Source: Catajapyx aquilonaris (lineage: Eukaryota). From it: a stretch of DNA of 64,000 nt. Every line of letters starts with the position of its first letter. The first letter of the stretch is position 1. Shown here piece after piece: positions 61-64,000 of this stretch. The translations under genes and the position numbers were made by a program. The notes under the pieces are model-generated. The model worked only from the letters and a program-made list of their open reading frames with translations. It did no database searches and was not told the origin of the DNA. The stretch covers positions 1 through 64,000 of the forward strand of contig KZ538294.1 of NCBI GenBank assembly GCA_000934665.2, in the 5' to 3' direction.

Positions 61-1225
61 TATATCATTTTAGTTGCAGAAAATGTCACCCTGAGTTGTT
101 ATTTTTGTATAGTGGTCGAATGCAGCAACTGCTACTGGATTAGGCACCTCCACCAAGACCCAAGAAGCTACACACAAAAATAACGATTTTGTTGGGCAAA
201 ATTTGAGATAACTAAAAGGACCAAAATATTAGTAACACACTGTAGCCTATATATACAGTATAATGCCCTCTACATATTTTCTGATTAGTTGATGGGTGTT
301 CCATTGTATCGTATATACATTATACATTACACTCCTACACTACATTTCTACTGATTCTGCAATCTTTAAAGGATGACCTCAAAGGAAGTCATATCCCTAT
401 ATCAAGCTTGATGTATGCTCATGAACCATTCATGCCTGTCTAAATATTTTAGCTCAGCCATTTTCAGAGCATCAACGGTTTAAACAAAGCGTTTGTGCTA
501 CAGCAGAATATATTTATAAAAAATCCTGATAGCTTCATGAGTTCAATGTTTTCTGGTGCATTTTCTCCGAAAACAGCCTGTATTAATAGCCGTATATAGT
601 CCTTAGTGTGGGTGGGGTGGGTGTGTGTGTGTGTGTACGCGTAGGAATGCGTGCTAGATACATATCGCTTCTGCCACGGTCGATTCATGCGTGCGATAAC
701 CATAAAATCATTGATGGCAAGAACAGTGACTTGCAAGTTGTGCCAACTGCATTAATCTTCTAACCGTGTAAGTGCATTTATGTCGAGTTTTATCACTAGA
801 AAATGGGATGTTTAAGCCTGTCAATTTTATTTAATTCGCGTCCTTACAATTTGCTTAAAAGTAATTGTTGACCCCTTTTATGAACCTCACCAATAGCTCT
901 GACAGTCGAAAGGTTCAATTTACATGTCGTAAAATGACTGCTGGAGATTAATTAAGCGCAAAGCAATTTTAGCCTCAACGCTGAGTAATTGCAAACAATG
1001 GTTCGTATAACTGCAACTGTTTTTGTGGGTAAAGCAAAGTGTAGTTCAATGAATGGTGTTGTCAGTGTTGTGGCTATTAAATAATTGCTCAGTAATTAAA
1101 TGTTTTAAGTACGTAGCGTTTTGCAATTGAAACAAAGTAATATGTCTGACTCGAATTTATTGAATGGAAATAAGGCTTTAGCGATTGATATTTAATGAAA
1201 CAAAAATACTACTGATATGATGTAA

Positions 1226-1364
1226 AGGCCTGTTTCCACCGGGCATAATTTTTGAGCACAAAATCAAACAAACTTTATTATTACTAATGTTATTACTTTA
1301 TTATTAATCGCCTAGCAACAAAAAACTGTTCTGGCTTAAATTTTGCCCAGAACAAAAATGGCCT
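1226..1364. mobile_element. Possible degenerate PIF/Harbinger-like MITE
   Basis: Left end AGGCCTGTTTCCACCGGGCATAATTT. Right end reverse complement AGGCCATTTTTGTTCTGGGCAAAATTT. Flanks TAA/ATA are an imperfect 3-bp TSD. Confidence 0.3.
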
Positions 1365-2840
1365 ATAAGTGATACTTAAGTGTGATAAAACTATTCGCGC
1401 TTCCAGAAAGATAAATGCAATTTGTCCATAAGAAATGTATACTGAGTTAATTACAAAATGCGTCATTTAACCATATGATGGTGACTGTTATACAATAAGC
1501 AAACACCAATTAGTTCGAAGCACCATTATGTCTATAGCACTCTCCTTATTCGTCTCTTCAGGCTATCACTCTTGCTTTAAAAAAATATCAGAATGAGCAA
1601 CATAAGTGATTCACTCGGTGGATGTAAGGTCCGGACCATGGTCTCGACAATATGCTCAAAAGATTTTTTTTTTTTTAAATTTCTCAATAGTTTGAGTCCA
1701 GTGGCCAGATCGGTGGTCATACACCGATTGGCAATTAGGCAACTTGAAAGAAGCTGAAGTGGAACATCTTTTGAGTCTAATGAATCGCAAGTACATATTT
1801 TCTCCTGTATTGTCGGGCACTTTGAAACGGCCTAGAAGATGCTGCAGCAAAACATGGTAGCCGCATTTATGTTGCTGGCGGCCAGAAGAGCCAATATAGG
1901 CTTAGCCAAACGGCCTCCGGCAAACACGGTTTTTGTCTCTGGAAGCCTTTATTTCACCTCCCCCTCACCCCATCCCCCCCTCCTTTTCTTTTCTTTCTTT
2001 TTGCTCCACGCTTCCTCCGTAGGGCCTAACGTATAATTAGTCGCTATACAACCTGGCAATTGCTAGGTTGAGGCCGAGAGGAGCTTGGCTTGTCTTTTTC
2101 CCGAGCACAACCCCCCCCCCCCCCNCATCCTCCCAACTACCATCTACCCCTACCAAGTCAGACTGGAGCCTGCTTGGCCTCGCCTCGGGTCATCGTCATT
2201 TTCGGCTACCTGTAAGGCTTGTAATTACTGCGCAAGCTGGAGGGCCATAAGGCCTCACACTTCGCCTCCTCTTTGCCTTCTTGCTTTTGCCTTTCATTCC
2301 CCCTCTACCTTCCTCCCCCGCCCTCTTTCTTTGGCCACAAAAGGATCCCCTGGGCACTACCCAAAAACACTCCAAATTTGGGGATTCCAAATTAGTCCAG
2401 ATTTTGAGTCAATTGCACCACACTCTTTTGTTCTCGCATGTTGGCGGGAATTTTTGAGTTGCTAAAAAAATGGGGGAGAAAAATGGTTTATGGGATTCAT
2501 AAAGGTGATAGGTTTTGTGGTGATTGCATCGCCTTGCCCAGGGCCACTTTCTTTTTTAGTGGGAGGGGAAAAAAAATTTAATGTTTTCCGGTTTTGCTAC
2601 GGAAACAAAATATTAGTTGGAAATAATGCGTCCGAATGAATCTTCATTTTTGGCTGTTGGATCCGACTTGATTTGTTATCAGGGTTTCGGTCTCGAAGGC
2701 TTGATTGGAGTGAGGGGAGAATCAATTGATTATCTAGTCACTTCTCAATGATGAGACAAGGACGCCAAGGGGTGTTCAAGTTTCTTGTTTTATGTTAGAT
2801 GTCAGTACTTGCATTGTTTGTTTATTTATTTTGAAAACTA

Positions 2841-3139
2841 CACTGAAAAAAAATTTAGTTGAACGAACCAAAATAATCGGCCATGATGGGTTGAAGTAAC
2901 CAAATAAGTACCGGTATGGTTGTCGTTCAATATAAATATTTGGTTGATGCAACCAGAAGTTTGGGTATTATATTGTGATACATGTTTTGGTTGTGCTAAA
3001 CCGATTTGGTTGAAACAATCCCGTCAAATATTTTGGTGAGTTCAACTAGTGAAAATTTCAAAGTAGCCGAATTTTGGCTGAAATAACTCTTATTTCTCTC
3101 AACCAGATAGTTTTGTTTACTTCAACCATTTTTGCAGTG
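2841..3139. mobile_element. CACTG-ended (CACTA/EnSpm-like) non-autonomous DNA transposon with internal palindromic motif array
   Basis: Ends TA|CACTGAAAAAAAATTTAGTTGAA ... TTCAACCATTTTTGCAGTG|TA. The interior carries repeated GGTTGANNNAACC-like motifs (ggttgaagtaacc, ggttgatgcaacc, ggttgtgctaaacc, ggttgaaacaatc, ggtgagttcaact, ggctgaaataact). Confidence 0.65.
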
Positions 3140-3192
3140 TAGACTTGAGAAGTTATAATATAGTGTGAGTAACTTATTATTTACAAGTAGAA

Positions 3193-3783
3193 TACTTTAG
3201 TGGGGGGCTTAACATCGGTATATTTCAACGCCGACGCCAGGGGGTGGTTCTCCTCCTGGAATTTTTTATTTTATTTTAATTACCCCGTGATGCAACCCTA
3301 GGCCGCTATAGGGGGGTGGCAGACCACCATACAGTTTTCTTAATGGTTTATCTTCAAACTCCGGTGCAAGGAGTACTAGGAAATGGGGTAAGGGATAGGG
3401 GGGTTTGGGGAGGGGACACATGTGCAGGTGCATTGTCCGGCGGTGGGCCAGGTGCAGTCCCCCAGGAGGTCAGGTTGCCAAGACGCCTCCTTAGGTGCGG
3501 GTCACGACCCATTGACGCAAGCTAAAGGTTTGTTCCCGGGTGGGGATTAGAACCCGGGACCTTTCGCATAGCAAGCCGAGACCATCTCGGCCACCGTGCC
3601 TCCCCCTCCTCCTGGAAATTTGGCCACTCTGGGGATCTTTAACGTGCACTCGCGCAAGCACACGGGATCGACGGCTTTACTTCCCTTATCACCCAGAGAA
3701 AAGTCACCGATCTCGGCCGGGTTCGAACCCACAACTTTGGGACCAGAGGCGAGCACGCTAACCACTAGTCCAGCAGCGCCGGC
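3193..3783 (-). mobile_element. tRNA-derived SINE (family A) with Nin/Deu-like core, interrupted by a second SINE
   Basis: Minus strand: A box TGGACTAGTGG (3762-3772), B box GGGTTCGAACCC (3719-3730), core GTGCACGTTAAAGATCCCC (3631-3649), 3' part GATGTTAAGCCCC. Perfect 13-bp TSD TTTACAAGTAGAA at 3180-3192 and 3784-3796. Confidence 0.9.
3262..3605 (-). mobile_element. tRNA-derived SINE (family B) nested in family A
   Basis: Minus strand head GGGGAGGCACGGTGGCCGAGATGG...GCGAAAGGTCCCGGGTTCTAATCCC. A-rich tail AATTAAAATAAAATAAAAAA. 12-bp TSD CTCCTCCTGGAA at 3250-3261 and 3606-3617. Confidence 0.9.
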
Positions 3784-5244
3784 TTTACAAGTAGAACAAG
3801 TTTGATCATGCAAACGTTTTAAAAATAATTATCACCAATATAGGGTCCACTAAGAGGCCACAGGCCAATCATGGAGTAACCATTATTATAAATTTACGAG
3901 GCACGTCTCAATAGCGTTTAAAACCAGACATTTAACCAAATTAGTGATAATTATTTGCTAATTTTTCACGTGGGCCACGCAAATTTTCAATTTTCACACA
4001 TGTCTGGTTTTGCCAGTCAGGTATCATTATGTATTTTTTTTTAGCTGTCCAATGTGGTACACTGTAGTACTTTTCTCCTTATTATGACACAACTTGAAAA
4101 AAAAATCATCAAATCCCAAAATTGTCATGCTTGAAACAGAAAGGAAAATGTTGACCTTTCCACATTTTTTTTTCTCCTCACTTTTTTGTATAGCGTGTAT
4201 GCAGCATTGGACGTGAAAGTGTTTGACCTCCGTGGTCCGTGTGGGAGAGAAAATATGGAAGGCGAGGCCAAAGTGGCTAAATTTCATGTCACGTGGCTCA
4301 CCCTCCCCGAGGCCAATCTATAACCAGCATCTATATGCAGGTCGCGCGAGTGCAGATAGGACTAGAATATATTATAGTGGTGGAAGTGGAAAGGGGGGGG
4401 AGGAGGGGGGGGGAATGCAAAATAGCTAGAGGGGGAGTCGAGGGAGGGGTTTACGGTGGACGATGACATCGATTTGCAAAGTCCAGAATGGCTGGACGAG
4501 TAGGATTGCCTGAGGTTGACTTCACGTTAGATGCTGTATGTCTGGTCCCCATAGGTGGATATAGGGGGTGGGTAACTTCAAGGTATATAACAACAGTTCC
4601 CTCCTTCCACCCCCCCTACTATTCCCCCCCTCTAAAGTTGGCGGTAATAACAGCCAGGCGCTTTGGAGAGTTGAGCCCTGAAATCTCCCAGCGGGACAAT
4701 TACCCGCTACAGGCAGGCTAAAAATTATAATCAGAGAGCAAAATTGCTCCATTACCCATTCCCTCCAAATTATACTCATTAGATACCGACATTGATTATT
4801 AGGCGAGATCGAAAAGAGAGGGCTGGAGCAAAGGCACAAAAGCAGAGAGAGAAGGGTCAGTTAGCGGACAGGAGCGTTGGGAAGCGGGGCGGGAAAAGGG
4901 CGTCGTTGGGGGAAGAAGACGCCGACGACGCCCAAGACGCCATGCTCCAGCCTCATGGTATCCTGGCTGGACACGAATCGCAACGGCAATGGTAAACCAT
5001 TTTGTTCCTTGTTACCATGTTGTGTGTGCATATCCGCCATATTGACTAGGCCTAGCCGGCCGGCTAAGACGAAGAGTGATGGGAGAGTGTCGCAAGTGTT
5101 GGGCTAGGGCGTGTTGAGGCCGTATATTTTCGGCTCTCCGATTCTTTGTAAGGGTCAGACTCAACTCCTCCTATGCCGGCCCTCCGACACTCCCATTTTG
5201 GGCACCTGACCTCCGCTTGATTCAGTGTTGACTTTGGGCTTTGG

Positions 5245-5266
5245 TATATATATATATATATATATA
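5245..5266. repeat. (TA)n microsatellite
   Basis: About 11 TA units. Confidence 0.9.
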
Positions 5267-7436
5267 AAAAAGCTCGTGTCAATTCAATATTCAGGGGCTT
5301 ATCCATAAGTATAAATCTATTAATAAGGCACGTAAGGTCTTCAAAGTTGGCTGAAAATTGCAAGGACCTTATGGGGGAAGGGTGCCGTTGGATTAATTAA
5401 ATTGGTCTAAATGAACTCGGGGGGTTTTAGCGTCCCAAGTCTATCGGCGTAAATCTGAAATGGTTACGACTTCCGGTCCTGAGAGCCATTGTTGCCAAAT
5501 CTGCACGAAGACGACGAGTCCAATGAAGAGAATATGTTTGATTATAGGTTGGGGACATCTCGCTGCACATATTTGAGAATAAAAGAACATGAGGTATTTT
5601 CCACCTTTGAAATTTTGACAAACATGTAAAAAAGGGGGGTAATTTCTTAATGAACTTGAAGGCCAATCTTGGCAGCATGGGACCCCCTGTCCATTATATC
5701 ATTTCACGGTTTATACAGCGAGTGGGATCCTAGGGCTCTTCGTTCCACAGACTAATTAGAGGCCCATAAAAGTGCAGCTTCTGTGCTTGGGAGTTTTTTT
5801 TTTGAAAAGGGGGTNGGGGGGGGGACAGGGCAATCTGGGGGGCATGCACTGGGGGCTCCCATTAGACCCTTTCTTCCGACTGCATGTCCTCCCTGAAGAA
5901 TTTGGAAGGATGGAAGTGGCGCCAGCACACTTTCCAACTTGTGTGTAATTCTTGCGTCTGTCTGCTCTGGGTTATCACGGATAAAGCTTTATTGTTCTGC
6001 CTACTAACCCGTCTTCAGCGGTGTTGTTGTAAAAAGGCGGGTAGGGAGCAATCAATGGGAATCATTACGACCGACTTCTTTTTGTGGCATGATATAAATG
6101 TCCAATGCAACAGGATTCAGAAGTAAAAGATATGAACTTACCTATGGTTCAGCAAGAGGATCTAAAAAAAAAGAAGTATACATGACATGACTCAAAGCCG
6201 TGAGTCAAATGGGCGTCATGTTGCGGAAGTAGGGTATGCGAATCGATACCCAGAGTGCTAATCCTGCCCCCCCCCCCCCAATCCCTACCTTTACCACCAC
6301 CATCAAAAAGGAAGAAAATCTTCACACACATGCTACAGCAAAGGGGACGATGAGCATTAATCCTAGTTTCTGTTTCCTAATTCGTTTCACACTCGAGTAG
6401 ATGTGCAAGCAATGGCTGTCTGGATGAAGTATTATGTTTGGAGGGGGTAGGCAAGAGGCAGTGGTAATTTATTGATTACAGGCAGTCATAGTTCCCCCCA
6501 CTTCTCCCTATGAAAATTTGCTCTATGGGCCAGGGGGCGGTGCCAAGCCCCATATTACCTAGGTGTGGCTGTTTTTCGAGCCCCCAAAAAGGTCGATATG
6601 CGCCAGGCCCCAAAACCCCACGCCATACTTCACTCGTTTCATTCCCCCAAACTCCGCCTTTCCTGCTAGGATTCTTCACTTCCACAAATTCAGCATATAG
6701 CCATCTGACAAGGCTTAATGTCAAAACTTTGAGTTGTGTACAATCGGGGCCGATGAAGCCGATTTTGTTATTTGACAGCAAACGCCAACGGCCATTTTAG
6801 TTACCACGAGGAATCAAAATGGCGCCTAAGGTGGCGTCTTTTTCGAATAGTTTTCAAGCTTGGGTTGAAAACATGTATCTGTCACTCAATCCTCAATGGT
6901 TTTTTGGGGGGAGCCATTTGCGTATTGGAGGCACAGGTGTGCGATATATTTTGCTCTTGTCAGACACGAGAAGAAAGATTTGAAGAGTGACTCACGCCTT
7001 CGTGCACTATGCATACACTAGACTCTACCCTTCCCGATAAACAATCGCAAACGTGTTTTCCCTTTTCGAAGCTATTTCCATGGCAACTACACACCACAAT
7101 CGTATGTCGCATCGTGGGGGGAAAGGGTGTGGGAATATATAAAAAAGAATAAGGGGGTGTGAGCGCGTGAAGGGGACACATGAATATTCGCGGTTCGTGT
7201 GAATACTCTTCGGTCCAGTCCAACTGCTCGCACTTACTCGTTAGCTTTACATATATCAGAAGAAAGGAACCAACCAGATGTGACTGGCAAATTTTCGGGT
7301 TGAATCGTGAGTGACAAGATGACAGAAGGGATATGTTTCAAGCAGAGTCGCATAGATCGGCGAAAATTTGCACACAGGTTGAAACCTTAGGGGTCAGGAT
7401 GAGGTAGTGTGTATGGCCTATTGTTGTAATCACATT

Positions 7437-7508
7437 TCTAACACTACTCTCATCCTTTCTTTAGTTATATACAGTATAACCAAAAGAAAGGATGAGAGTA
7501 GTATTAGA
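7437..7508. repeat. 72-bp near-perfect hairpin (probably a collapsed MITE)
   Basis: Left arm TCTAACACTACTCTCATCCTTTCTTTAGTTATA. Right arm reverse complement TCTAATACTACTCTCATCCTTTCTTTTGGTTATA. Loop TACAG. Confidence 0.8.
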
Positions 7509-10070
7509 GTACACTCTTGATGATGACTGCATGGAAATAATATGACTGCAGGTTAATATCATATCGGTTTCACCCTATGGTGGCCTATTTAGAAACGCTC
7601 TCCGTTGCTTACAATAAGAATATGAATATTGTCCGGATGAAATATCCATAATAATGACAATAATTTTAAAGAGCTATCTTAGAGTGTTTTTCGCAACAGC
7701 TCTGGACATCACGGGCAGTTGAAAGTACTTTTGCGATATCATTAATTGTCATTTGGTATATACAGATGTGGCGAAAATTCGGCTTTCCTGATGGTCAAAG
7801 CACGCTTCAATGGTATAGCTTGTAAAATTTAATTTTGCAGTTATTATATCTCCCCAGCATGAAAGTTGATATTGTGCAAAGAATCTACAACATGTCTCGA
7901 ATAAATCAGTAGATCACAGTCATCACACCATATTCTATCCGGTGACAAATAAATATTTGAAAAATAAAAGAAGCACTTCTTATGTTATTTTGCCGCGATG
8001 TTGCATTTTAAACAATATTTTGAGGATGAAGTTTACTAGAACTTAGTCTGGCTCGCCTGCCAGAAAAGTTAGACACGTCTTCCAAACACGAACCTTAGAT
8101 CAGGTAGTCACCGCAATCTGGACAAGAAACTAAATCCGAGTTTGGAATCGAATCTCTGTCTATATATGGTCGGGAGCATTGCGACAGTGCCACGTTGCTT
8201 CCTCCACACCAATTAGATGGAAAGACCACTGATTCCCAGAAATCTAGTGTCACACACAATAAACCACAATTTTATGGAACTCTTTCACACTCTTACGCGT
8301 AAACTTTGTACTTGTATACGCCAGTGTAATTTAACGGGAAATTAGCACTGTTCCCGTCTGATAATTTGCTACATGAATTACAGTGTACACACGTCTTGAT
8401 TACTTCTAAAAACATGTGGGTGTAAAAATGGATATCACTTTTAATTTTCTTTTTGAACCATCTGCATTGAGCAAGCAGCCATCTTGCTCTGTAGTAACTG
8501 ATGCGCTAAGCGTCCGGCGTATTTCTGCGATCAAAGCCCCAGATAGTTGAATGGTTCATATATTTTAAAAAATACCCAGAGCAACGTGTGAAATTCCATT
8601 TGACTCATTAGCACACACAGCGAATGAACATGAATAATTAGCAAGCAGAACAATGGTGGCAGTGGACGCGAACCAAATCAAAATATGTTGCTGAGGCCGC
8701 GTTGTCTCTCACGAGGGTCATCCGGAAAAGGAAAGCAAATGACCACCGCCACAGTGGTGGAAACTTCCATCAGTAAGGGTTTGTAATTATCAGGTCATGA
8801 GCCGTGTCCAAGGCCCCCCTCAAAACATCACTGATGGATTTTTAATGGCGCAAGAAAAGTTTTTTTTAAATGCGATGCACACTTAGCCGAGCCTAACTTG
8901 GTTCACGGGTAAGAGACCTTTGATTTGCCGGGGCTCCGAGTCGACATGTCCCGGCAATCCGGCCTGTTCCCTCCGCGCATCGGATCGGCCTATTGAGGTA
9001 CCGGCAGGTACCGGTAACATAAGAACATTCGCACACTAGCGTGATAACAAAGGACAATTTATGTGTGTAATAATGACCATCAGGAAAAATGTGGTGGGAA
9101 CAGAATGGCACTCGACAGTGTGCTGTAACTTGTAGGCATATGTAATAAATGTCCCGAGATATGAGTGGCTAACGATGTTGATGAAAATGATGGCGGGCAT
9201 GTGAAATGTGTGTACTTAGGACAATTGATAGCCTGATTAAAAAATAATAAGGAGCTATCATAAAGTTGATTTTTACGCGGGAAATTTGCCATGAGGAACG
9301 GACAATTTTGTAGGCTTAGAGCTTATGACCTGCTTATTCAATAGGTGCTGTGTTCCTTTCGTTCTTTAATGAGAGGTGTGAAAGTCAAATTTTCAAACTG
9401 ATGTCGCATGCAGTGTAATTATCAATTGCAGGATATACATGAGCTGATTCCGATCGCGCCTGCCGCCATAATATGGCCAAACATCTCTCGGCCGTAAATA
9501 CGTTGGAAAGACAAGGTTTTATTGCATATAAATAATTGTTTGTACTTGGATGCACGCTGTTGCGATCTGTCAGGAGGTGTAGTTAAACTGTCAAAATTAT
9601 CCCACCATAGTAATTAAAGTGTTAAAATTATGTCAATCGCATACCAAACAAACGATTAAAACCCGGGCGAGAGCAAATGGATGCGGAGCGATTAATCTTG
9701 TACACAGTATTGTGTACGTGTCAATTGCTGGCTCATATTTTACTATTGTTAGTGCCACGCTTCAATGTATGCCTATTTAATTATGTCATATTATGACTAG
9801 GCCTACTAATAATGTTAGTTTTGGAGCGACACACGCGTGTACCCTAACTGTCATGCCGTGGAAAAAGAACCTAATAGAAAAAAGTCATAATGCAGTTACC
9901 GTATCTCTATATATAAAAGTTTTTACCTTATATAACTTAACAGAAGTATTTCTTAATTGTAAATAATGCAACGTTGAGGACATTGCAATTTTAAAATAAT
10001 TAATGTGGTATGCTCGATTAAAGGCGAGAGATGTATTTCTCCAAAAACGGGTACGGGGTGCGGGGAAATG

Positions 10071-10132
10071 AAATAAAATAACAATAAATAAATAAATAAG
10101 TAAATAAATAAATAACTAAATAAATAAATAAA
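10071..10132 (+). repeat. Imperfect (TAAA)n microsatellite, possibly a retroposon tail
   Basis: aaataaaataacaataaataaataaataagtaaataaataaataactaaataaataaataaa. Confidence 0.85.
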
Positions 10133-50778: not shown

Positions 50779-50871
50779 CAGGGTGTTCCAAGTTCGGGGG
50801 GTCACTTCTTGATAACTGCTACCAAGGGATATCAGTTATCAAGAAGTGACCCTCGAACTTGGAACACCCTG
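50779..50871. mobile_element. 93-bp mariner-type hairpin MITE
   Basis: TA|CAGGGTGTTCCAAGTTCGGGGGGTCACTTCTTGATAACTG ... CAGTTATCAAGAAGTGACCCTCGAACTTGGAACACCCTG|TA. Confidence 0.92.
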
Positions 50872-51233
50872 TATACATTGTTGTCATATATTACGTATAC
50901 AAGTATTATTCGATGTCTTTAAAAAAATGAGCATGTCACTCACTGCATAGGATAACAGTATTCCTGAGCTAACTTAAAATACATTGATATACCATTGGGT
51001 ATGATGTGTAAAAATGAAAGTATACGTTTCCAATCTTCCGACTGGTTCAATTTAATTGTTGTACTACGCTGATTCTGGACGTTTGTCAGAAGTGAAGTCG
51101 GAGTGGAAAAGAATATACCGTAGGCCTATAGCCCTAATTATGTCTAGAACTACACACTACAAGAGTTTCTGCTGAAATTGGATCAAATTCTGCAGAAAAC
51201 AAGTACGCTGCACAGTGGTCTGCGAGACAGGTA

Positions 51234-51918
51234 CAGGGTGTTCCATACTGATTCAAACAAAAAGTTCAGGTGCTATATGAAATTTTACGTAATTTAAATT
51301 GTGATTTCATTAGATGTACATCAGGCCGAGTCGATGCAATGTCGCAAGTTGTATCCGCCACCTACAAGATAGTGTCATGAACACTACTTTAATGAACTGG
51401 ATCTCATCAGTAACGAGTGTTACACAGGGTTCGTAAATTTAACCTACCGTCGCTTTGGGAAATGATCGAGGGGTTTTAAGGGTTGAGTATATGCAACATG
51501 GGTCTCCGACGCATAGTTACCGAGATAATTAGCATTAAATAAAACGTGTATTATCCCAGCTTATAGGTTTAGGATACTGCTTACGATACTTCCATCGCCT
51601 AGGCCATTCCCTTCTACATCTAACAGGATCGTAAATTAAAATTAAATTCATGGTAACACCTTAAATTTAAATGAAAAAGGTAAGGTCGCGTGGAGGGACG
51701 CATATTATATGTGCCAGTATACCTTGTGTTTGAAGCACATTATCTCGGTAACTATATGCGTCGGAGACCCATGATGGATATACCCAAAGTGCTCGTCTAG
51801 AACCCCTATATCATTTTCCCAAATCGACCGTAAGTTAAATTTCCGAACCCTGTGTATAGTGATCCACTGATGCGCGTAGTTCTCTCTAAAAGTGTCCCTC
51901 TCATTTTGAAACACCCTA
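51234..51918. mobile_element. Probable outer mariner-type MITE
   Basis: TA|CAGGGTGTTCCATACTGA ... TCATTTTGAAACACCCTA|TA. TIRs are short and imperfect. Confidence 0.5.
51423..51854. mobile_element. Inner TA-flanked MITE with ~110-bp inverted arms
   Basis: TA|CACAGGGTTCGTAAATTTAAC...CATGGGTCTCCGACGCATAGTTACCGAGATAAT versus ATTATCTCGGTAACTATATGCGTCGGAGACCCATG...GTTAAATTTCCGAACCCTGTG|TA. Confidence 0.8.
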
Positions 51919-52698
51919 TACTCCAACAGTATACAGGGAGTTTCTGAATTCAACCGACGAACTTGGAGGGGTAATAGAGGGGACCAAGACAAACATATTT
52001 GGCATAGGAAACCGTGTCCGGAAACGCCATCTAGAGGGGGTTCATAGACAAGGAACGGGTGCGCTCAGACGCGTCAGGCTGGCGGCGTGTAGAGTTTCTA
52101 TGGTGACAGATTCCTGAACCAAGTTTCCCCATAAATAAGCCTCTTATCCTTGGTGCGATATTTCTTTTATTTGAATCCGGATTGGTTTCTGCGTAGTAAC
52201 TTAATGGTGTTATTTTCTTCCTAGTGGGCGTGTGCCAACGTGACCGTAAGAAGGGCAAACAAAAAAGTCTATTTTGCTATTAATCGCAACGTGATGAATA
52301 AAGAAAATGATGAATACGTCAGTATGATAATTATGTCATAATTAACCGGATTTTGTCATTAAACTATTTTTTTCTTACACTAAGCCCGATTATACGTATC
52401 TACTTACAAAAACTGAAATAATACGTGTATTTTGGGGTGGAAATAAATCCGGTTTTTTAACCAATGAAAAATGAGCCGCGGAATGTCGATAGACCGTAAC
52501 ATATAATCCACTAAATGAGAAAAATGTTTCAAATTTCTCATTGTCAATTTGAGCAGCCCCCTTTCAGGCTTGGTGGGCCCTTCGACCTATCCGCCCCCTA
52601 TGGGCTATATTGGGGATTATTTCTCAATGTTTCTCTCCTGTTTCCTTTACAATACCGGTACCAAGAATCGCCGTACGGTCCATGACACATTCATCGTC

Positions 52699-52876
52699 AT
52701 GTACTACGGGACTCAAATTGTTTTGGCCACTTTATCCTGGTCTTGAAGCAACCCTTCACACAGGCCCCACGGTGAGGAAGGGTGTGTGTGTAACCTTCCT
52801 CACCATGGGGCCTGTGTGAAGGGTTGCTTCAAGACCAGGATAAAGTGGCCAAAACAATTTGAGCCCCATAGTACAT
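52699..52876. repeat. 178-bp near-perfect palindrome (foldback MITE, unclassified)
   Basis: ~83-bp arms with 3 mismatches. Loop GTGTGTGTGTAA. Confidence 0.9.
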
Positions 52877-53161: not shown

Positions 53162-54034
53162 AATGTGACAAGTGCTGGTACGCTACCCCAAGATGGCACT
53201 CGGTGACTCAAAAGCATTTGAGCCATGCCCGCAGGATTGTCACCACAGGACTCCTACTTGACATATAGGCCTACTCAAAATGGGTGAATGCAAGCCTACC
53301 GAAAATGGGCAGGGGGAAGGTGGGGGAGAAGGGAGGACATGGAAGGGAGGAACAGCATGGCAGCCATGCAGCTTCCTGCCTGCCCAAGCGAAGTACTTGG
53401 GCACAATAGGTTAGTTAGGCCGGCGGGCGCAACCGGAAGCTGAATCATAAGCCCTTGCAGACGAACCTTCCGTCCGGCCTGAATTAGGAGACCTCTTCAG
53501 CCTGATTAGGAGAGGGGGAGTTAGGTGGGGGGGGGGNNNNNNNNNNNNNNNNNNNNNNNNNNNNGGGGGGGGGATCCAAAAGAGTAGGCTTTGGATGCTG
53601 CAAGTACAATTTCAATCGGAGAGTACCTAGGTCTTAGTGTGTAATTATTTGTGGAAAAGCACGCAGGGACAGTGTTTCGCCACAGAATCACGACCAGGAG
53701 GAGTGTGGAAAAAAAATAATTGCAAGGCTTGGAGAGATAATGATACGATAGGTATGGGTAGTGTATCCTTGACATTATTCCGTGTTCGGCTTGTATTTCC
53801 TGCAACTTCTCTTTTCTTATTTTTTTCCAGAATCCCCCCACTTTAGGATTAATTTGCGCTGGTGCCTATATCTAGTCGGTATATTGAAGGTGTTGCAAGA
53901 ATAGGGCTGTACAAATCGTGATTGCAATTCCGTTGTAAATTATAAGTTACGTTTGATTATTATGGGCTTAGGTTGTATTCAGTAAATGTAAGTTACGCAA
54001 GTTGGAGTACGTCAAGTCTGGACGTATGAGCCTA

Positions 54035-54610: not shown

Positions 54611-57600
54611 TATTCCTCAACCATCATGACAAATGTGATCAACATTTCTTTCTCCAGACACAAGTTTCCCTCCAGAGAATTCCATTCACATTGTAGCTAG
54701 AACTTGGGTAACTTTTTACGACCCTCGGACCCCTACAATTTTTGTCTATACCCCTGATGATGACTGGAATGCTTTGAATCCGAGCAAATGAGTATGACCG
54801 TTGGTTTGGGGAGAGGACAAGTTGGCCCTTTCCCCGTCAATCCAACCCTTAATATCTATACTTCCAGTCAAGGGCTAGTGGGGGCGCTCAGGGGGGTGGG
54901 GGGTGTCGAGGGGGGGCCCGAATCAAATGCCCTACACTCTTTGAACACCCCCCCCCCCCTTACCCTAAATAATCCCCCCCGTTTCTTTTCAAACGGACTA
55001 AGGCCCGAATCATGTTTAGTTTTATTCGGGAATATTTAAAAAATTGTGCAAATTTGGAACTAATGACGGCAATCAAGTCCAATTACTGTGGCCGGGGACC
55101 ATGTTCAATGGCAGAGGAAATAGCAGCAGCAGTGGCGGGGAAGAGACTTTGGGGGCTCCCTTGGTGACACGGAATAGTAGGAATCCGGGGCTCGGAAAGA
55201 GAAGCAGCAGCACACTGACTGCAATAAAGCAGCTCGGTGGATATCTTCTGGGGTCTTCTGCATCAGTATTTATCCGGGGGTGGATGTCCGGAACATTTCG
55301 GGTGAGCCCAGGATGACTGTCAGGCAGGTGAATTACCGCTCACTTATTTTCAAACATGTGTCTCATGTGTTATGGTAGCGATTGCTGGTAGTGGTAGTTG
55401 TATTGTTGTAGAGTTGTGAGAAACAATATGGCGACGGATGAGGGTCAGAAGCGCCAAATAGTTCAGTGTAAAGCCGGTGATGTCTCTCCTACAACTGACT
55501 CCAGATGGGGTAAATTGCAACAGTGGGGGTAACGGCTGATAATATGAACTATGGTGTTAAAGTTGTGGGCATAACACATTATTGCACATTGCTGCAAAAA
55601 TTGCCGCGCATATTTTGGCGCATGTCCGAAGAGTTTATTACAGGGAGAAGGTCCCAAATAAGGAATATTATCCATTTCCACTATTACGATGTGGCAGTAA
55701 GCCATTCAATTCCTATATATACTATATTATCACAAAGTATGTTTCCAGGTGTCACTGAATAGGAACTGGCGCATACACTGTACATACCGTATATATGAAT
55801 AACATGGGGGCTATTTTTGAAGTGCCTCTTTAGAAGATGCCGTGTCTAGAAAACCTCCAATTTGATCCTAAATATTTATGCAATAAGAATACGTTCAGGT
55901 ATGCGAATTTGGACAGCGTTTGCTTGATACCCTTATGCCTGATAATAAATAATAAATCAAGGTGTTACTGTATGCTGTTTATGCACCTGGAGTTGGGTGC
56001 AAATAATATTTTTCCTATACGAACACGGAATTTTTTAAATGGACTCTTATCACAAATGCACATAATATTCAAGCGGACCTAATCGAATGATTAGAATCAG
56101 TATGTTGGTGTGCCTTTTCGAGTCCACATAGTTTAGGCATGATCATTTTTGACGCCTGAGAGCAAACCTGTGTACACAAATAAACTGCGATCGAGTCAGT
56201 TGGAGCTTTAGGTACACAAGATGGGAATCAGACAGATTTACTCAGATGGCAACTTAGATGGGGTTAGAATTATTTACCGGAGTCGAATGTCCCCCCCCCC
56301 CCNGCACACAAATTCCTGGCTTGATAGAACTGTTTTGGTTCTTGCCATGTTTGTGTACACAAGCCTAGTTATAGGGAGCTTACCGTAGTCCACATCGGAA
56401 TAATAGTGTAATTATAGAGGGGTAGGTATAGGCCTAATGCATTTTGCTTGTACCTGATTTATGCCATTGTGTGTACCTAGATTTGGCACAGACAGTTTTT
56501 GGCACGATTGCCTTCACTTGAGGCTAGTACTTCTTGGAATTGCCATGTGGATAGGGCTGGGCAATAATAATTATCTGTTTATTACTAGTGAAGCTGGGGC
56601 AACAATTAAGAGGTGGGGGGCTGGGTTAGGGGGAGGGAGGGGGAATGTCAAGAAAAGTTTACGGTGCAGGTCATTGTTCATATATCGCGGCAAGAAACAC
56701 AAAGTTAGGTGGTGCTGATAAGAAACACGGCAACAGTGCAAATAAAGTCATATCCTATGAATGGTGCATGCACAGTGTTGGTAAGAAATGGGTCAAGTAT
56801 GCTATAAGGTCTCTTATAGTCATACTGCATTTGCATGTTTCATTAAAGGACAATATTCATGACTATGTACTGTATATATGGAGACAATTTTTTTTTGATC
56901 ATTTGAAGCAAATAGGTATAGTGCGCCTACGCAGCAGGCACTCTTGATTTCCAGTACTGATTACCAGCCCTTTATATTGATTGAGACCGAAGTGGCACTG
57001 AAATACTATTGATTGGCGTCACAAACCTGCCAGAAATTTAGCTCAGATATGACTCAACCCACATTTTTGGTCCAAAATTGTTCAGATTTATGACTTACAT
57101 GGGTGTTGGCCCCTACCCCCCCCAAAAAAAACCCACGATTTGTCGTTGTATTTGACTGCTGGCAATGGCAACTATGTTAGGGGGTTTTTCTATTGGCACT
57201 TCGACCCGCGACTTGTGTCGGCGGTATAGAAAGGTTCGTGCCACTCGGGTGTGAGTGTGGTGAATAATTCATGCCGGATTTGACACGCAGGAGTCGCCAC
57301 AACCTCTTCCTCGATTCACCGCATGCAGGGGAAGCCCCGATGTGTCCATCCACTTCCGACCCCAGCCAACAAAATAGCTGCGATCGAAAATGACCGAGCA
57401 GGTACCCCGTGACACAATTTGGTCATCCGGAACGATTAGGTTTACCGTAGTCACATATCGGTTGGAGCAATGACCACTGACGGCCGACTAATTGCAAGAT
57501 TGTGAATTTCCCGAATGTGGATATAATCCATTATCCAGTAGAAAATTCCATGATGACGATCGACAGCCCAACCACAATTACCACTTAATTGGGGGCACAA

Positions 57601-58659
57601 AATGCAAACAATTCTGTCGGGCAGTCATTCATGGCGGAGCGGCACCCCGCATGCATGCATGCATGCATGCACAACTTGTGCTTAATGCATATGTTCCTCT
57701 CGTTCCCTCTACGTGCTGCATTGCTTTCAGTTAATTAGGCCTACTAGTGAATGATCCTGGCTAGTGATGGGAAGGGGGGCGAATCATTTTTTTTTATATA
57801 GTTGGCGACCATTAAAACCTATCGAATGCGAAACAATCGCGGGAGCATGCGGAAAAGTCGTGGTTCATAGGTGCAAAAGAGCGGTTAAAATGTTCCGCAT
57901 AATAGCAGCTTTTGGTGGATGTTAAAAAGACTGTTGGGGACATTGACATGGTAGGATGTCACAATTTTTTTTTAGAGATGCGATTCACATATTTCTGATG
58001 TAGGTATACTTTATGGAATGAGTTTTGATTATATCGAAGCTGCTTATTATTCGGGACTTTTAAAATATTAGCTGCGCATATTAATTTAGACTATTTCAGG
58101 AATGATCTTATATGAAGTTCGCAGCAGAACAGACCCACCTGCAGTAGTTTCTAATATTTTCATAACCTATAAAATAGCTGTTTAAAAGTAACTGCTTAGA
58201 AAATTCATAACCACTGGAACACATCCCATGCGACATTTTTAGCATGTGAAAAAACTGTTCCGTCAAAGATCGCTATTTGACCCCATATCACAAGCGACAT
58301 GGATTTAATTATGATGGCCAATTAAAGGGTTAAAGTTAGCTACGTAATTGTCCATTACCAATTTGAAAAGTTCATATTTAAGCTTTGAACACAACTTTAC
58401 TGTGGAAACCAGCCGCATGCATGCGCATGATAGTCTGAGTGATAAAACCAGACACCCCCATCCCCCATCCCCAGTCTACTGAGTGGTATGAGTCGTAAAT
58501 TAGTCTATGAACCAGTTAAGTCTTTCACACGGCTCATTATCACGAGTACTGCACATACCCTTTACTCCTTTGTGTCAGTCACAATATGTAGCTATGTGTG
58601 GATGCCCCTACAATGGTATGTTCTCTAAGAACTATATTATTTAAAAACCAAATACTGTC

Positions 58660-58789
58660 TAGCCTCCTGAGACCCGGAGTACAGTATACTGTACCTTTGT
58701 TTTTGGTTTTTTACGCGCTTGAGTTAGTCAGAAGGTGCTGGAAAAAAAACAAAGGTACAGTATACTGTACCAGGGGTCTCAGGAGGCTA
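58660..58789. mobile_element. TAG...CTA-ended hairpin MITE (Academ-like termini)
   Basis: TAGCCTCCTGAGACCC..GTACAGTATACTGTACCTTTGTTTTT ... AAAAACAAAGGTACAGTATACTGTAC..GGGTCTCAGGAGGCTA. Flanks GTC/GTA. Superfamily assignment is tentative. Confidence 0.7.
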
Positions 58790-61003
58790 GTATATATCCA
58801 TAAGAAGTGTAGTAGCTACTCCATAGCAAATCCATATCCCCTATTGGTGAAGTTCCGTGCCATTTGATATGTGACTAGCCTGCCACATAAATCATCGGCA
58901 AAGAGATGAGATTGTCGCAACGGATTCATTTAGCGGTAAGAAGCGACCATGATATCAATTTGTTTCAACGAGGCTGCAGCCAGTTAGGGCTCCTCGTGCT
59001 GCATGCCGGTCCTCATGCACCGCAAGCGCCATTTGCTCAATTGAGTTACACGCTACGTGCATTTGCTGGCACTCGATACAACCTTGGAAACACTGCATCC
59101 AATTGTCGCCATGATTGCCCCACCCTGTACATACGTTATAAACCCCACCCAAGTTACTCTATACACAATGGGATGAAACTTCTCACTATCTTTGTCCTAT
59201 ACTATATTTCGAAACCAATCACTGCTGGATTGAACCATCAGATAGGACCCATTTTGACCCTCATTTTATGCTCACTTTAGTCCGTTTTCGATAGCAAAGT
59301 ATTGTCTGTTATATTGCTCCGGTGCATGCTGAGGAACGGACGTGAGTTTGCATTGGCAGTGTTGACAGTGTGACATGTCACGCACACGACCAAGTGGCAA
59401 AAACTCGACAAATCAGCGTTCTCTGTTCAAACCAACCAGGACTTGGTGATTGGGGCAGAGGGCAGGCACGTTGCCGCTTTGTGCGCCTCCAGACGGCAGG
59501 TCTTAATGTTATTTTAATGATGAATCTTCTGAGATGCTCAATTGTAGACGTATGTAAGCCCGGGTCAAAAGAGCTTATTTGTTGCATTGTTACATACCGG
59601 CAAAGTCGTTTCGAGTCGGGCCCATTTTCTGCGAACTTCATGCCGGTTATGACTTTCGGATGGCAGTGGCCTGTAATTACTCCTGCTAATTGCATGCCTT
59701 CTCTCGAAGACTTCTTTTCTATTACGCCATGATTGAAGAGCTGCGTCGACGGGCTTTCATCATTACCGTCAAGGACTCCAAAGGGTGTCAAAATTCTTTA
59801 GTTTCTCCCCCAAGCTTCGCTCTTATTCGACTCTCTTGACTCCCAATTAATACATGGGGAGGCTGTTGGAGCATTATAAATGGTACATCCCAACAATACA
59901 AAGCAAAAAAAATAATATTTCTTCGGCCAGTCGATTTTTGATGCGTTTCACACCTCTGAGTCTTATAAATTGCGTCAAATCATAGTGATTGGGTACGATG
60001 GCTCCATGTAGCGTGAATATCACTCGGTCTGTCTTGGAAGTGTGAAAAATAAGAGATTCCACGCTTTATGACCTGAAGGTGCACTAGATATTTAGCAGCA
60101 CGATGTAAACATTCGCGTGCGTTACTTTTTTTCCCCCCATTGTTTACATTGGCTGATGTGAATACCGCGGGGCCTCATTACTTTAGCGTGCATCATGTCG
60201 GATTGGCGACATGGAGACAGTGGGATGACGTCTTTATATATACTTATGAATCGTTTCAATTAGAGTGTGCACGCTCTTACGTGCAGGAGGAGTATATTGA
60301 TCTGCCAATTGGCTATTAAACGATGGTGTATAACGAGAGTAGTTGGTAGAATATGGCTAGCTTGTAAAATGGTGTTATTGTGTATTGGACGATGGTATAA
60401 TGACTGTTATACCGATGCGGCGTAACTTTTTAGAGGGTGAGATTACAAGACACGGTTATTCGATTGGGAGTTTAGCATGAACTTGTAGTCCACGCTATAG
60501 TTTCCAGTCTGACATGATATTTCCACGCGTAATGTGAAAATAAGTGCGATCATTGCCCCTATAATAAAATATGATTTTCTCACTGGTGTTCGAGTGGGTT
60601 TTCTCGGATCCATCTGTTTTCCAATATGTCCTCTTTCCATGTTTCATGACTTCAGTTAGAGGCGCAAAATGGCTTTTGGGCCTTCAGAATGATTACGTCA
60701 TTCTCTTCCACGCAATGGAAGAAGGGGGTGGAGAAGATTCCCAACCTACAGTACCTGGTGGTTCACATGAAATGTAGCAAGTTATATAAAATAAAGTTCG
60801 ACAGCAGTCTATCCCCACGTCATGTGCCTGTGGTACCGCTTGCGTAGTTTGAATTATGTAAGGTTTATATCAATATGGAGCCAGTGAAACCCAAATTTTG
60901 AGTAACAGATAAGAGCTAACTGCCGGCAGTTTTAGTTAGTTGCAAAAGTAGAAGCGTTTTGGCCAGTTAAAAGTTTCATGCTGTAGATATAATATCGTAA
61001 TTA

Positions 61004-61303
61004 ACCGAAGCAGTTTGGAGTAGGGGATATGGTGTCCGACTGCTAATCGGGAGGTCCTGGGATCAAATCCCGGGGCCGGCAACTCTGACCGTGGTTTTCT
61101 GTGGTTTCCCACGGTCCTTCCAGGAAAATTCCGGAGTTGCTTCCGTAATTAACAGGCCACAGCCGCTTCCTTCTGTCCCTATCATATCCCAAAAAGCGCA
61201 GTAAAATGAAAGCAAGGAGTTCCAGGCAAAACAAAAACTTCCCCCCTAAAGAGCCGATAGGCTGATAACAGGGTATGAATTATTTTATATTATTTTATTA
61301 TTT
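61004..61303 (+). mobile_element. tRNA-derived SINE (subfamily D), second copy
   Basis: Near-identical to 43735-44019. 14-bp TSD TAATATCGTAATTA at 60990-61003 and 61304-61317. Confidence 0.92.
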
Positions 61304-63457
61304 TAATATCGTAATTATGCTATTGAAATACATGCAACATGATTGTAGCAGAGTATAATAAACGAGTCACACTTTAAGCTTGCATTACGTCAGCCATGAA
61401 CTTGTGCAATATATCTGGAATCCGCTTAAAATAATTCTACACGTAGTTTTTCGCTTTTTCCAGTATTTTGAGTATACATTTTATAACGTCTACATCTTAC
61501 TCGGGACGTCAGCATAATATTTCAGCCTATGTCAGGAGAGCATGTTGTATGTAATCAACAGCACGAGGCATATGTAACGTATACATGAGGTAAAAAAAAA
61601 TCAATTCTCACGTTATTTTGTTCATTTTTCTTTTTTTTCCCAGGTTACACTAGAATCAAGATTGCGAATATTCTCACCGCTTTGTTTTCTACTCATCCTG
61701 CATGTGCCTAAAAATTACTTCCACTTATTTTTGGGACTATTCCTTGAACTATAGCAGAGTGTTGCGTTTGTAGCATATTCTTGCTAGAAGTTGTATTTTA
61801 AGTCGTGGCCTATAACTCTGGTACCCTTGCTGATGCCTGAGAAAAAAAAGATGTATAGGCGTGCATCCGGAGAAAAGACACGAAATGTTACTACGATATA
61901 GTGGTCGTGTATACGGTGCCGAATATATAGTTTCGTGAGAATGTGCAATGGGAATAGGCTTTTTAGATAGCGTGTGCTAATATATATAAAAAAGTGGAGG
62001 TTAAAAAAAATTGTTTCAGGAGTTTTCCGAAATCACTCCCGAGACTACCGCCGTTCCAAATGTCACTCACACCATAAGTCAGGTTTTAAATACGTGCCAC
62101 ACACCGGGAAACGGTCCCGAGGGTAACGTAAGGTACAATTTCAACCATGTTGAAGCACTCACGGGTTTGATTAATATAGACTTATGCCGAGGGAACGACT
62201 GTTCGACACGACATATCGTACCGACTCGGGGACCAAAAATCTATTTTGAACCATCTTGGGGCCACCCCAAATATTGATTAATTGGGCCTAGGAGGGGGAT
62301 ACAACGACTGTTGAAGTCGATGTTGAGTTATATGAACCAGAATATAGTCAGTTGACTACCTAGAAAATTTGATGTGTATGGTCACACGACTCATGCAAAC
62401 AGGGTGCTAACAATCATCGGGAGTCCCACTGCTAGTTGCTGCTAAGTTAGCAGTACTAAGCAGCAGTGGGACAAAAATTCCACCCAATAGTGGTCGAATG
62501 AGCCTGAGCAGATGGGGTGGTCAGTCAGGTAGGGAGAAATTAGACGCCATTTCGCATGTGTGTCGACCATCAAAGCAGGCTCCAAGGGAGCCAAATCCAT
62601 CAATCATCTAGCCACTCGCTGACGACAGGAATCAATTAATAATCAGACGTCCGACGTAAGCGATGACATCCCCTAGTAGAAATTTGCAGCAGTACAGAAC
62701 ATGCGTGGACGCTGATTAATAATATGTGAATTCCAATAGTGAACGTGGAGTCGTCAGCGGCAGGTACGAAAATCCTAATCATCAATCCCAATCCCGATCG
62801 GTTTTATCAAGTTGGCCGATCACTTGGGACAAAATAATGATTTCGCCCCCCCTCTACCATCACCACCTACCCCCCCCCCCCTTCTACAATCCGGAGTCTG
62901 CCGCCGTGCAAGGGGACGTACGGCAATCTAAATTACAGTGTGGTGCTAAGGCTTCTTTAGCATAATGGGTAAATATAGGGTTGATACCCAGGAGGAGCCC
63001 AGCCGAAGCTGGACTTTGCGTGCTTTGGGTGATCGACTTGGTGTGTGAACCCCGTTGGGTATATGCATCGTTACTATTTTTTCGCTCTAGGCACATAAAC
63101 GGTCGATATTGCTAATTTGGTGCGGGATATTTTGTTGAAAATGGGGATAGGTAGGAGGGGCATTTTTATAAAAATGTGGGGTTGATGTAGTTTGCGTTAT
63201 ACAGTCAGGTTAGCGTATGTGGAGTGTCTACACAGGTGACGTGTAGCGTGCATGCCGGTATGGCTTTTGTTGGCGGGTTTTCATTCGGTGGCGATTATAA
63301 ATTATTAGAACACTAATGTTCCGACTTGAGAGACGGAAGAATGTCTCATTATTTTGATGTCCCGTGTCTTGGGAACGGGATATTTTATGGGACGTATATG
63401 TATTTTAAAAAATCACTGGTATAACTTATGGCTATTCAGGTGAACGGTATCATATAC

Positions 63458-63618
63458 CAAACCGCCCGATGCACATTCGCCCGCCGCCAACTCGCCCGCC
63501 GCCAACTCGCCCGACGACAACTCGCCCGACGACAACTCGCCCGACGACAACTCGCCCGACGACAACTCGCCCGACGACAACTTGCCCGACGTAGGCTATA
63601 TACATATTCACCCGATGC
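63458..63618. repeat. 15-bp tandem minisatellite CAACTCGCCCGACGA (9 units plus 1 displaced unit)
   Basis: Units start at 63458, 63473, 63488, 63503, 63518, 63533, 63548, 63563 and 63578. A degenerate tenth unit lies at 63604-63618. Confidence 0.92.
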
Positions 63619-64000
63619 AAACGTTGATCTCGATAGGTTCAGCCAAATGTTATCGCACTGGCCATTTTTCCATCAGATATATACATAAGTGGCCACGACA
63701 TTTGGTCGACATCAGTCATATAATAAAATTCTTCCAAATATACAAATTGCATCGCTCTATTTCTGTTTTAATAATTAGGCCGTAATTGTTGGGGGCATGT
63801 GAGCATTGTATGCAGGTACGTGGTTCAATCAATTGTTGGGATAATTTTCGTTATTTTAAAGCCTATTATAGGCTACTTAAGTAAAATAGTGTACTCCGTA
63901 GCTCACTCGAATGTGACACGAGGCGTGTGAGTGCACTGCGCGCGTGCATTAAATGGTAGGCTACTCGGATCATTAAATTATTGATTGATTGATTTAATTA

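Follow-up and report, generated by a model that had tools for sequence, protein, structure and literature searches.

TA-bounded palindromic words in a 64-kb window of Catajapyx aquilonaris DNA: probable scars of transposon excision

Footprints of Tc1/mariner elements follow a simple rule: the first or last 2-4 bases of the transposon remain between TA dinucleotides (PMC6943129, partial text). Those of Sleeping Beauty read TACAGTA and TACTGTA (PMC6943129, PMC7827188 and PMC2874221, partial texts). Insertions, deletions and excision footprints of Stowaway MITEs (transposable elements of the miniature inverted-repeat type) are described for the Triticeae (PMC1925063, partial text). PIF/Harbinger-ISL2EU (PHIS) elements have ends that usually start with GG or GGG, and their groups duplicate TWA, AT, ANT, CWG or TNA, not TA (PMC4482050, partial text). 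Here, we analyse two TA-bounded palindromic words, TAGGCCTA and TACCGGTA, and their relatives in 64,000 bases of DNA from Catajapyx aquilonaris (the window; G+C content 41.0%; 139 N in nine small gaps). Both words are strongly over-represented, and they are probably end-joined excision scars of TA-targeting cut-and-paste transposons. The first-pass annotation of this DNA, made from the sequence alone, had interpreted them as excision footprints, which our results partly support.

Like Tc1/mariner footprints, as far as the available parts of the cited texts describe them, the words would combine TA on both sides, 2-4 terminal bases, end-joined 3' overhangs and nibbled variants. The Sleeping Beauty words TACAGTA/TACTGTA are themselves enriched in the window (22 vs 9.4 expected). 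The two dominant words differ from such footprints in their GC-only cores and in that their source elements were not seen in the window; a GG..CC or CC..GG origin would also keep bases from both ends, not one. Moreover, knowledge of Tc1/mariner footprints, the closest known counterpart, comes from individual loci studied by experiment, whereas the evidence here is statistical and window-wide. Triticeae Stowaway elements offer a further parallel, as natural traces of TA-targeting MITE excision on an evolutionary scale; according to the available portion of PMC1925063, those traces concern single loci compared across species and a known element, whereas here the evidence is statistical and no source element of the two main words was seen. 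Full-text searches, with subscription journals mostly outside their reach, revealed no publication in which these words are described or in which footprints head a genome's list of over-represented words. The novelty would lie in the GC-ended source families and in the scale, the footprint itself being well established at experimental loci.

Exact counting gave 14 sites of TAGGCCTA and seven of TACCGGTA and no further copies, in full agreement with the positions reported in the first-pass annotation (14 of 14 and 7 of 7). Dinucleotide-preserving shuffles contained on average 0.68 (largest 4) and 0.67 (largest 3) sites, respectively, and none of 100 shuffles reached the observed count of either word. 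The enrichment thus survives the dinucleotide correction that had been named as a possible refutation. On both strands, the 28 occurrences of TAGGCCTA compare with 1.56, 1.22, 2.00, 5.83 and 10.37 expected under Markov models of orders 1-5, and the 14 occurrences of TACCGGTA with 1.22, 0.88, 1.04, 1.23 and 3.64. The two words are the most significant 8-mers in the window behind four homopolymer 8-mers only, and they rank as the top two among all 256 palindromic 8-mers. Their over-representation is confirmed as real. The sites of the two words and of some related words are as follows (no strand is assigned):

5047-5054: TAGGCCTA, followed by the TA-bounded 10-base palindrome GCCGGCCGGC (5055-5064) and TA at 5065-5066
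9798-9805: TAGGCCTA, on a contig of single-copy depth
13434-13441: TAGGCCTA, on a contig of single-copy depth
14402-14409: TAGGCCTA, on a contig of single-copy depth
25965-25972: TAGGCCTA
31172-31179: TAGGCCTA
31347-31383: 3.5 tandem copies of the 11-base unit TTATAGGCCTA, with two TAGGCCTA (31350, 31361) and one TAGGTCTA
34257-34264: TAGGCCTA, with GGGCCTA upstream at 34248-34254
37396-37403: TAGGCCTA
51116-51136: chain of TACCGTA and TAGGCCTA with a common TA, then directly TAGCCCTA
53266-53273: TAGGCCTA
56429-56436: TAGGCCTA
57736-57743: TAGGCCTA
2909-2916: TACCGGTA, with a second contig shorter by six bases
9009-9016: TACCGGTA, 2 bases past TACCGGCA at 8999-9006
15914-15921: TACCGGTA, on a contig of single-copy depth
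17135-17142: TACCGGTA, on a contig of single-copy depth
22446-22453: TACCGGTA, on a contig of single-copy depth
34191-34203: TAACTTA and TACCGGTA with a common TA
52653-52660: TACCGGTA
636-643: TACGCGTA
8294-8301: TACGCGTA
37003-37010: TACGCGTA
2020-2028: TAGGGCCTA
10962-10977: TAGGCTA, then directly TAGGGCCTA
24154-24165: TACCGTACCGTA, that is, two TACCGTA with a common TA
31523-31534: TACTGTA and TAGGCTA with a common TA
30920-30932: TAGGCTA and TACTTGTA with a common TA

The tandem array at 31347-31383 is probably one scar multiplied by slippage. The GC palindrome GCCGGCCGGC, which abuts the TAGGCCTA word at 5047, may be a scar in which a different element left five bases of either end.

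The excess depends on the TA frame. When NNGGCCNN words were sorted by boundary pair, TA..TA reached a ratio of 14.0 and the runner-up 4.1; the corresponding values for NNCCGGNN words were 13.4 and 7.1. These ratios display the duplicated TA on both sides that characterizes a Tc1/mariner-type footprint. TAGGCC was followed by TA in 28 of 66 occurrences (both strands) and TACCGG in 14 of 24. Palindromy is required as well. The window contains 85 TA-bounded sites with mirrored (a-b-a') inner 3-mers and 33 with fully palindromic inner 4-mers, compared with 47.1 ± 6.8 and 9.6 ± 3.4 in 300 order-3 Markov simulations, none of which reached either number. Non-mirrored inner words at TA boundaries had ratios of only 1.03-1.09, and the 15 other boundary dinucleotides showed no comparable excess, most ratios being near 1. 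The four most enriched TA-N3-TA classes (CAG/CTG, ACT/AGT, GCC/GGC and CCG/CGG) are all mirrored, a property of 8 of the 32 classes. Among the ten TA-SSSS-TA classes (S, G or C), the four palindromic ones comprise 24 sites vs 2.3 expected (GGCC 14, CCGG 7, CGCG 3 and GCGC 0), and the six non-palindromic ones 8 sites vs 7.2. These boundary-pair, simulation and class counts bear out the earlier description of the words as dispersed, TA-dependent and palindromic.

The enrichment is confined to a few cores. Most of the 16 TA-palindrome-TA words occur at or near their expected counts, TAGCGCTA has no site at all, and TACGCGTA has three vs 0.38 expected. For inner lengths of at least 5, no TA-specific excess was found overall, longer palindromes numbering 44 at TA and 59 at AT boundaries; the inner 5-mers that recur between TAs are GGGCC (3 times) and CACTG/CAGTG (6 times vs 0.94). 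Two non-palindromic TA-bounded word pairs were also frequent, namely TACAAGTA/TACTTGTA (12 sites vs 2.84, with unrelated flanks) and TAACTTA/TAAGTTA (21 sites vs 8.95); examples of the two are located at 3182, 16249, 36239, 50898, 8309 and 22852. They may represent further scar classes. The first-pass annotation had attributed the words to three transposon lineages. This number is not supported, as lineages are not countable from 64 kb; TACGCGTA, TACAAGTA/TACTTGTA and TAACTTA/TAAGTTA are enriched as well.

Transposon excision would account for this combination in the following way. A Tc1/mariner-type transposon would insert at TA and duplicate it. Excision with a 2-4-base stagger would leave terminal bases on each flank as 3' overhangs, and end-joining would seal the break; in place of the former single TA there would then be two, with a few terminal bases of the element between them. 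Because the element ends are inverted repeats, the retained bases would mirror each other as a palindrome or near-palindrome; only palindromic or near-palindromic TA-bounded words would therefore be enriched. TAGGCCTA could represent GG plus CC, with both ends of a GG..CC element contributing two bases, or else the self-complementary tetranucleotide with which a GGCC-ended element terminates, and TACCGGTA could likewise derive from CC..GG or CCGG ends. TAGGCTA/TAGCCTA and TACCGTA/TACGGTA would be nibbled versions with one base lost. Under one version of the mechanism, two-base overhangs of GG..CC and CC..GG elements would be joined end to end, and loss of one base would give the 7-mers. Under the other, the four-base GGCC and CCGG overhangs would be self-complementary and directly ligatable, which would explain the uniformity of the words. 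Both versions would fit TAGGCCTA and TACCGGTA alike. Tc1 and Tc3 of C. elegans produce two-base overhangs, and Minos in Drosophila leaves four terminal bases plus TA, a net insertion of 6 bases. These retained lengths suit an 8-base word; the terminal bases differ from GG/CC.

The spectrum of variants is in line with such an origin. The 24 one-substitution neighbours of TAGGCCTA occur 48 times vs 39.4 expected, and those of TACCGGTA 30 times vs 27.8 (both strands). Shorter variants do stand beside the full forms, as in known footprints, with an excess that is weaker under higher-order models. With order-3 expectations, TAGGCTA/TAGCCTA has 15 sites vs 6.25, TACCGTA/TACGGTA 10 vs 3.89 and TACAGTA/TACTGTA 22 vs 9.37; the 9-mer TAGGGCCTA/TAGGCCCTA has 3 vs 0.34, and TAGCCCTA/TAGGGCTA, with 2 vs 1.05, is not enriched. 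The statement of the first-pass annotation that partial forms are common thus applies to all of these except the last pair. The 7-mer excesses are modest and model-dependent, the expectation for TAGGCTA rising to 9.8 under the order-4 and 11.6 under the order-5 model, and some TACAGTA sites are the starts of elements still present (58680, 58756). The resulting order, in which the full 8-mer exceeds the form one base shorter and substitution variants are almost lacking, is what end-joining after excision would give, and the counts support this. In our interpretation, the shorter forms arose by end-joining together with the scars themselves: under ordinary decay, substitutions should greatly outnumber deletions, and the loss of a core base would not be tolerated in a binding site. 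The substitution halo is small, with an excess of about 4 sites compared with 13 for the intact words. This near-absence of one-substitution variants suggests an age of only a few percent divergence; the mean word age can be estimated, with a wide error, at about 4% (from 8d/(1-d) ≈ 0.33).

The words are dispersed in single-copy DNA. Compared over 40 bases on each side, the flanks of the 21 words are mutually unrelated, and base frequencies at the four adjacent positions showed no difference from those next to all 4865 TA dinucleotides (p 0.19-0.97), so that no extended target-site motif was found around them. In the interval 2800-22500, all nine words were reproduced in separate assemblies of four runs, on long contigs with a depth of 16-31; the true repeats of this interval, which adjoin these single-copy-depth sites, reach depths of thousands. 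All four runs belong to a single sample, from which the window itself may have been derived, and this reproduction excludes assembly error only. Hence, TAGGCCTA and TACCGGTA display neither the shared sequence beyond the word nor the multi-copy depth of a dispersed repeat. Clustering of the 16 bases after every TAGG, TACC and TACG retrieved only inner parts of known MITEs and of a known short interspersed element (SINE). Alignments of the three SINE copies and of the MITE copies in the window contained no TA-bounded word difference and no informative site. In the sample contigs, depth bins in the thousands (about 25 elsewhere) lie at 2800-4113, 13312-13968 and 19225-19881; they mark very high-copy repeats, including the host repeat around a nested MITE at 19293-19623.

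One of the nine words coincides with a length difference. A second contig, present in 4 of 4 runs, lacks 2910-2914 and 2916, six bases inside the TACCGGTA word at 2909-2916. The depths of the second contigs were 26.7/45.4 (X1), 7.6/26.1 (X2), 8.0/24.3 and 25.8/54.1, and two of the four carry a further one-base gap at 2928. Across 19.7 kb, this is the only event of at least 5 bases among the 12 insertion/deletion rows listed (3 further rows are unlisted). Coincidence is unlikely, with an estimated probability of roughly 0.1-0.4%, because the nine words cover only 72 of 19,701 bases. A bare TA at the site of a word had been proposed in the first-pass annotation as a check of the footprint interpretation; a form six bases shorter does exist exactly at this word, with a sequence that is considered below.

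Candidate source elements in the window were surveyed as well. The CAG-ended elements noted in the first-pass annotation are indeed present: TA-flanked MITEs of this kind are plentiful (19293-19623, 30990-31124 and 50777-50873, with a copy at 43394-43692), and related TA-flanked elements begin with CACAGGG (51421-51856) or CAGTATA (58680-58769). Its GG-ended termini, at 1-59 and 26443, also proved real and are accompanied by TA; their role as a source of the words is less clear and is discussed below. The elements are listed here, with the strand where one is assigned:

19293-19623: 327-base MITE whose CAGGGTG... ends are inverted over 20 of 20 terminal bases, with a TA duplication
30990-31124: 131-base TA-flanked MITE of the same CAGGGTG family as 19293-19623
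50777-50873: 93-base TA-flanked MITE with CAGGGTGTTCC... ends
51421-51856: 432-base TA-flanked MITE, inverted ends of about 110 bases starting CACAGGG
58680-58769: 86-base TA-flanked palindromic mini-element, starting CAGTATACTGTA / CAGTATA, which supplies 4 of the 22 TACAGTA/TACTGTA sites
1-59, minus strand: GG-ended element terminus reading GGGTGAAGTGGGAGAAGTG..., TA at 60-61, remainder outside the window
26443-26502, plus strand: second terminus of the GG-ended (GGTGAAG) family, AGGTGAAGTGGGGGAAGTG..., TA at 26441-26442, no matching other end found
28552-28569, plus strand: TA GGTGAAG TA GGGCC TA, the first 7 bases of the GG-ended terminus between TAs, then TAGGGCCTA with a common middle TA

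The segment 51518-51750 was considered as a CCG..CGG MITE and rejected, being the inner part of the inverted ends of the MITE at 51421-51856. The GG-ended terminus is shared over 18 bases between 42-59 (minus strand) and 26444-26461, with 0.02 such matches expected by chance, and the sequence at 28552-28569 links the GGTGAAG family to TA-bounded remnants. A metagenome scan with this terminus returned 15 matches, of which 14 were G+C-rich and apparently due to chance. The remaining one, on contig L011 (41% G+C), has TA directly before the terminus (L011:2999-3054), and the contig ends 54 bases later. Just outside it, a 109-codon open frame ending ...GGGHFEHML (L011:2620-2949, minus strand) may be the tail of a transposase; a Pfam search of the neighbouring open frames of L011 retrieved no family. 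A local-alignment scan for further GG-ended copies found only the query copy, the copy at the window start lying outside the scanned range, and the similarity near 5020-5046 to the GG-ended element was below the scan threshold. A scan of viral contigs gave no matches.

TA occurs 0-1 base upstream of the GGTGAAG terminus in all four instances from the window and L011. The three bases before it are TAG, TAA, TTA and GTA; two of these fit TWA, and a three-base duplication of the PIF/Harbinger type may apply to the family. The family shares its GG start with PHIS elements as characterized in the accessible part of PMC4482050, and two of four instances could be read with a TAA/TTA duplication. It differs in the position of TA, which lies at 0-1 base in all four termini and directly abuts GG in the words.

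Several observations weigh against excision as the origin of the words. All word statistics refer to a single window of 64 kb from a single sample. Within it, neither GGCC- or CCGG-ended elements nor inverted-repeat elements of the form TA/GG..CC/TA or TA/CC..GG/TA were found, and a CGCG-ended one was not seen either; relaxed scans for TA/GG..CC/TA, TA/CC..GG/TA and TA/CG..CG/TA (12-base ends, at least 10 matches, up to 3 kb) gave only words pairing among themselves and weak pairs. Similarly, a Pfam search of all 175 open frames of at least 70 codons in the window revealed no transposase domain and nothing above a family cut-off. Among the retained bases, CAG is matched by resident MITEs; CCGG and CGCG have no counterpart in the window, and the GGTGAAG family could yield GGCC, and hence TAGGCCTA, only via a non-canonical 2+2 join with two bases from each end. 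The canonical words of this family are not enriched (TAGGTA 23 vs 25.2, TAGGTTA 7 vs 6.4 and TAGGTGTA 0 vs 2.4), which limits the role of the GG-ended termini proposed in the first-pass annotation. Of the canonical words of the CAG-ended MITEs, only the 3-base one, TACAGTA/TACTGTA, is enriched, and of these 22 sites at least 4 mark the ends of an element that has not left. At 2909, the shorter form reads TT and not bare TA, and the depths fit an allele or a second copy alike. Chains of words with a common TA show a weak excess (7 vs 3.2, p 0.04). Finally, isolated exceptions occur at other boundaries: near-palindromic 3-mers at AG..CT (ratio 1.69), palindromic 4-mers at CA..TG (1.84) and 4-mers mirrored in the outer pair only at CG..CG (1.86). 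The word CATGCATG, from the CA..TG class of 4-mers, is among the over-represented 8-mers.

The gap left by the source elements could be filled by some other TA-anchored mutational process that inserts short palindromes, such as repeated cutting at TA by a domesticated transposase or nuclease with fill-in, or aborted integration. The lack of a GGCC or CCGG source element in the window would be natural under such a process, and the excess is indeed defined by TA boundaries and palindromy alone. We nevertheless regard it as rather unlikely, and we know of no process of this kind. Untemplated addition of G and C is excluded by TAGGGGTA/TACCCCTA (2 vs 2.4) and by the flat non-palindromic TA-SSSS-TA classes, on which the model of random G/C addition was rejected. 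Hairpin opening would copy the variable flank in mirror form and should raise the counts of palindromes in general, whereas only few cores are enriched; the hairpin P-nucleotide model (hAT, Mutator, Transib or RAG type) was rejected because TAGCGCTA has no site and no excess was found for longer TA-bounded palindromes. It is also unlikely that the words are selectively maintained sites for a DNA-binding protein that acts as a dimer, such as an architectural or promoter factor. A perfect 8-base palindrome would suit a homodimer, purifying selection would also leave little excess of one-substitution variants, and the small clusters at 31350/31361 and 34196/34257 fit this explanation. However, binding motifs are normally degenerate. 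Here, enrichment is seen for forms with one core base missing and not for substitution variants, and such a loss would shift the two half-sites relative to each other. Furthermore, the three unrelated cores (GGCC, CCGG and CGCG) have only the TA frame and palindromy in common, one site shows a 6-base length change inside the sample, and about one site per 3 kb in DNA without recognisable genes is a high density for a specific factor. The Drosophila DRE is an eight-base TA-bounded palindromic promoter motif, and motifs of this type are concentrated in promoters and tolerant of variants. It shares the shape of the words; the sites in the window are spread through gene-poor DNA and their substitution variants are not enriched. 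To our knowledge, no factor with the motifs TAGGCCTA/TACCGGTA has been described.

It is quite improbable that the words are still attached to their elements, as the TA duplication and first bases of decayed copies, or that they are pieces of short dispersed repeats. This does apply to TACAGTA at 58680 and 58756; TACAGTATA has 9 sites in the window vs 0.97 expected. For TAGGCCTA and TACCGGTA, however, there is no shared signal beyond the 8-mer on either side, the continuations of TAGG, TACC and TACG cluster only into inner parts of the known SINE and MITEs, and the words lie on contigs of single-copy depth. Chance, base composition or an assembly artefact can hardly be credited. The excess does shrink with Markov order, down to 28 observed vs 10.4 expected for TAGGCCTA on both strands at order 5, but none of the 100 shuffles and none of the 300 simulations reached the counts, and the reproduction of 9 of 9 words by separate assemblies of the sample reads argues against an assembly error.

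If excision is the origin, the surplus of about 60 sites over the 64 kb, or about one per kilobase, would call for many excisions along the lineage. By a rough estimate, a rate of a few hundredths of an excision per generation in each genome, sustained for some 10 million generations, would suffice, which is within the range of active families. A more specific and rather doubtful scenario attributes these scars, about one per kb, mainly to 'hit-and-run' TA-targeting families, now rare or extinct, with the self-complementary ends GGCC, CCGG and CGCG. After a four-base stagger, their donor flanks, cohesive like those of a restriction cut, would have been ligated into a uniform scar, and the words would form a fossil record of the families and of their stagger. 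Cohesive ligation of self-complementary four-base ends is our own suggestion and, as far as we know, has not been described. If the excision origin is correct, a large share of the small insertions in this lineage would stem from transposon excision, which would have added 5-6 bases at TA about once per kb. Word counts could then reveal transposon families without remaining copies, their cut stagger and the approximate time of their activity, and caution would be due in motif searches, since over-represented palindromes in animal genomes may be repair scars and not regulatory sites. Should the words prove to be conserved sites instead, they would point to an abundant DNA-binding factor not yet known.

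The window has the appearance of gene-poor DNA of an invertebrate-type animal, as judged from the absence of Pfam families and long open frames and from its content of TA-flanked MITEs, three tRNA-Ser-like SINE copies and many long G or C runs. Its CpG observed/expected ratio is 0.77. The only Pfam hints among the 175 frames were low-complexity noise in a tandem repeat and a weak match to SP-RING (zf-MIZ) at 17659-17892 (minus strand; E 0.0024, under the Pfam cut-off). The latter frame may be one exon of a PIAS-like gene. An Rfam search of the window gave no matches. The tRNA-like SINE copies are located at 37921-38130, 43735-43990 and 61002-61260. In the first of these, ARAGORN calls a tRNA-Ser(GCT) at 37929-38002; the other two are 95% alike across 213 bases and have a common body that is missing from the first. 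A near-perfect inverted repeat at 52699-52876 consists of two 83-base arms, 96% complementary, with 12-base spacing; the TA scan reported it as 52733-52842, with TA on both sides and a match over 35 terminal bases. The 15-base tandem repeat TCGCCCGACGACAAC at 63477-63591 (7.7 copies, 97% identity) is the source of spurious low-complexity protein matches. The most over-represented 8-mer in the window is CCCCCCCC/GGGGGGGG. Runs of at least 8 G or C number 27, the longest with 17 bases, and those of A or T number 62; several single assembly N are located in or beside G/C runs (14323, 56303).

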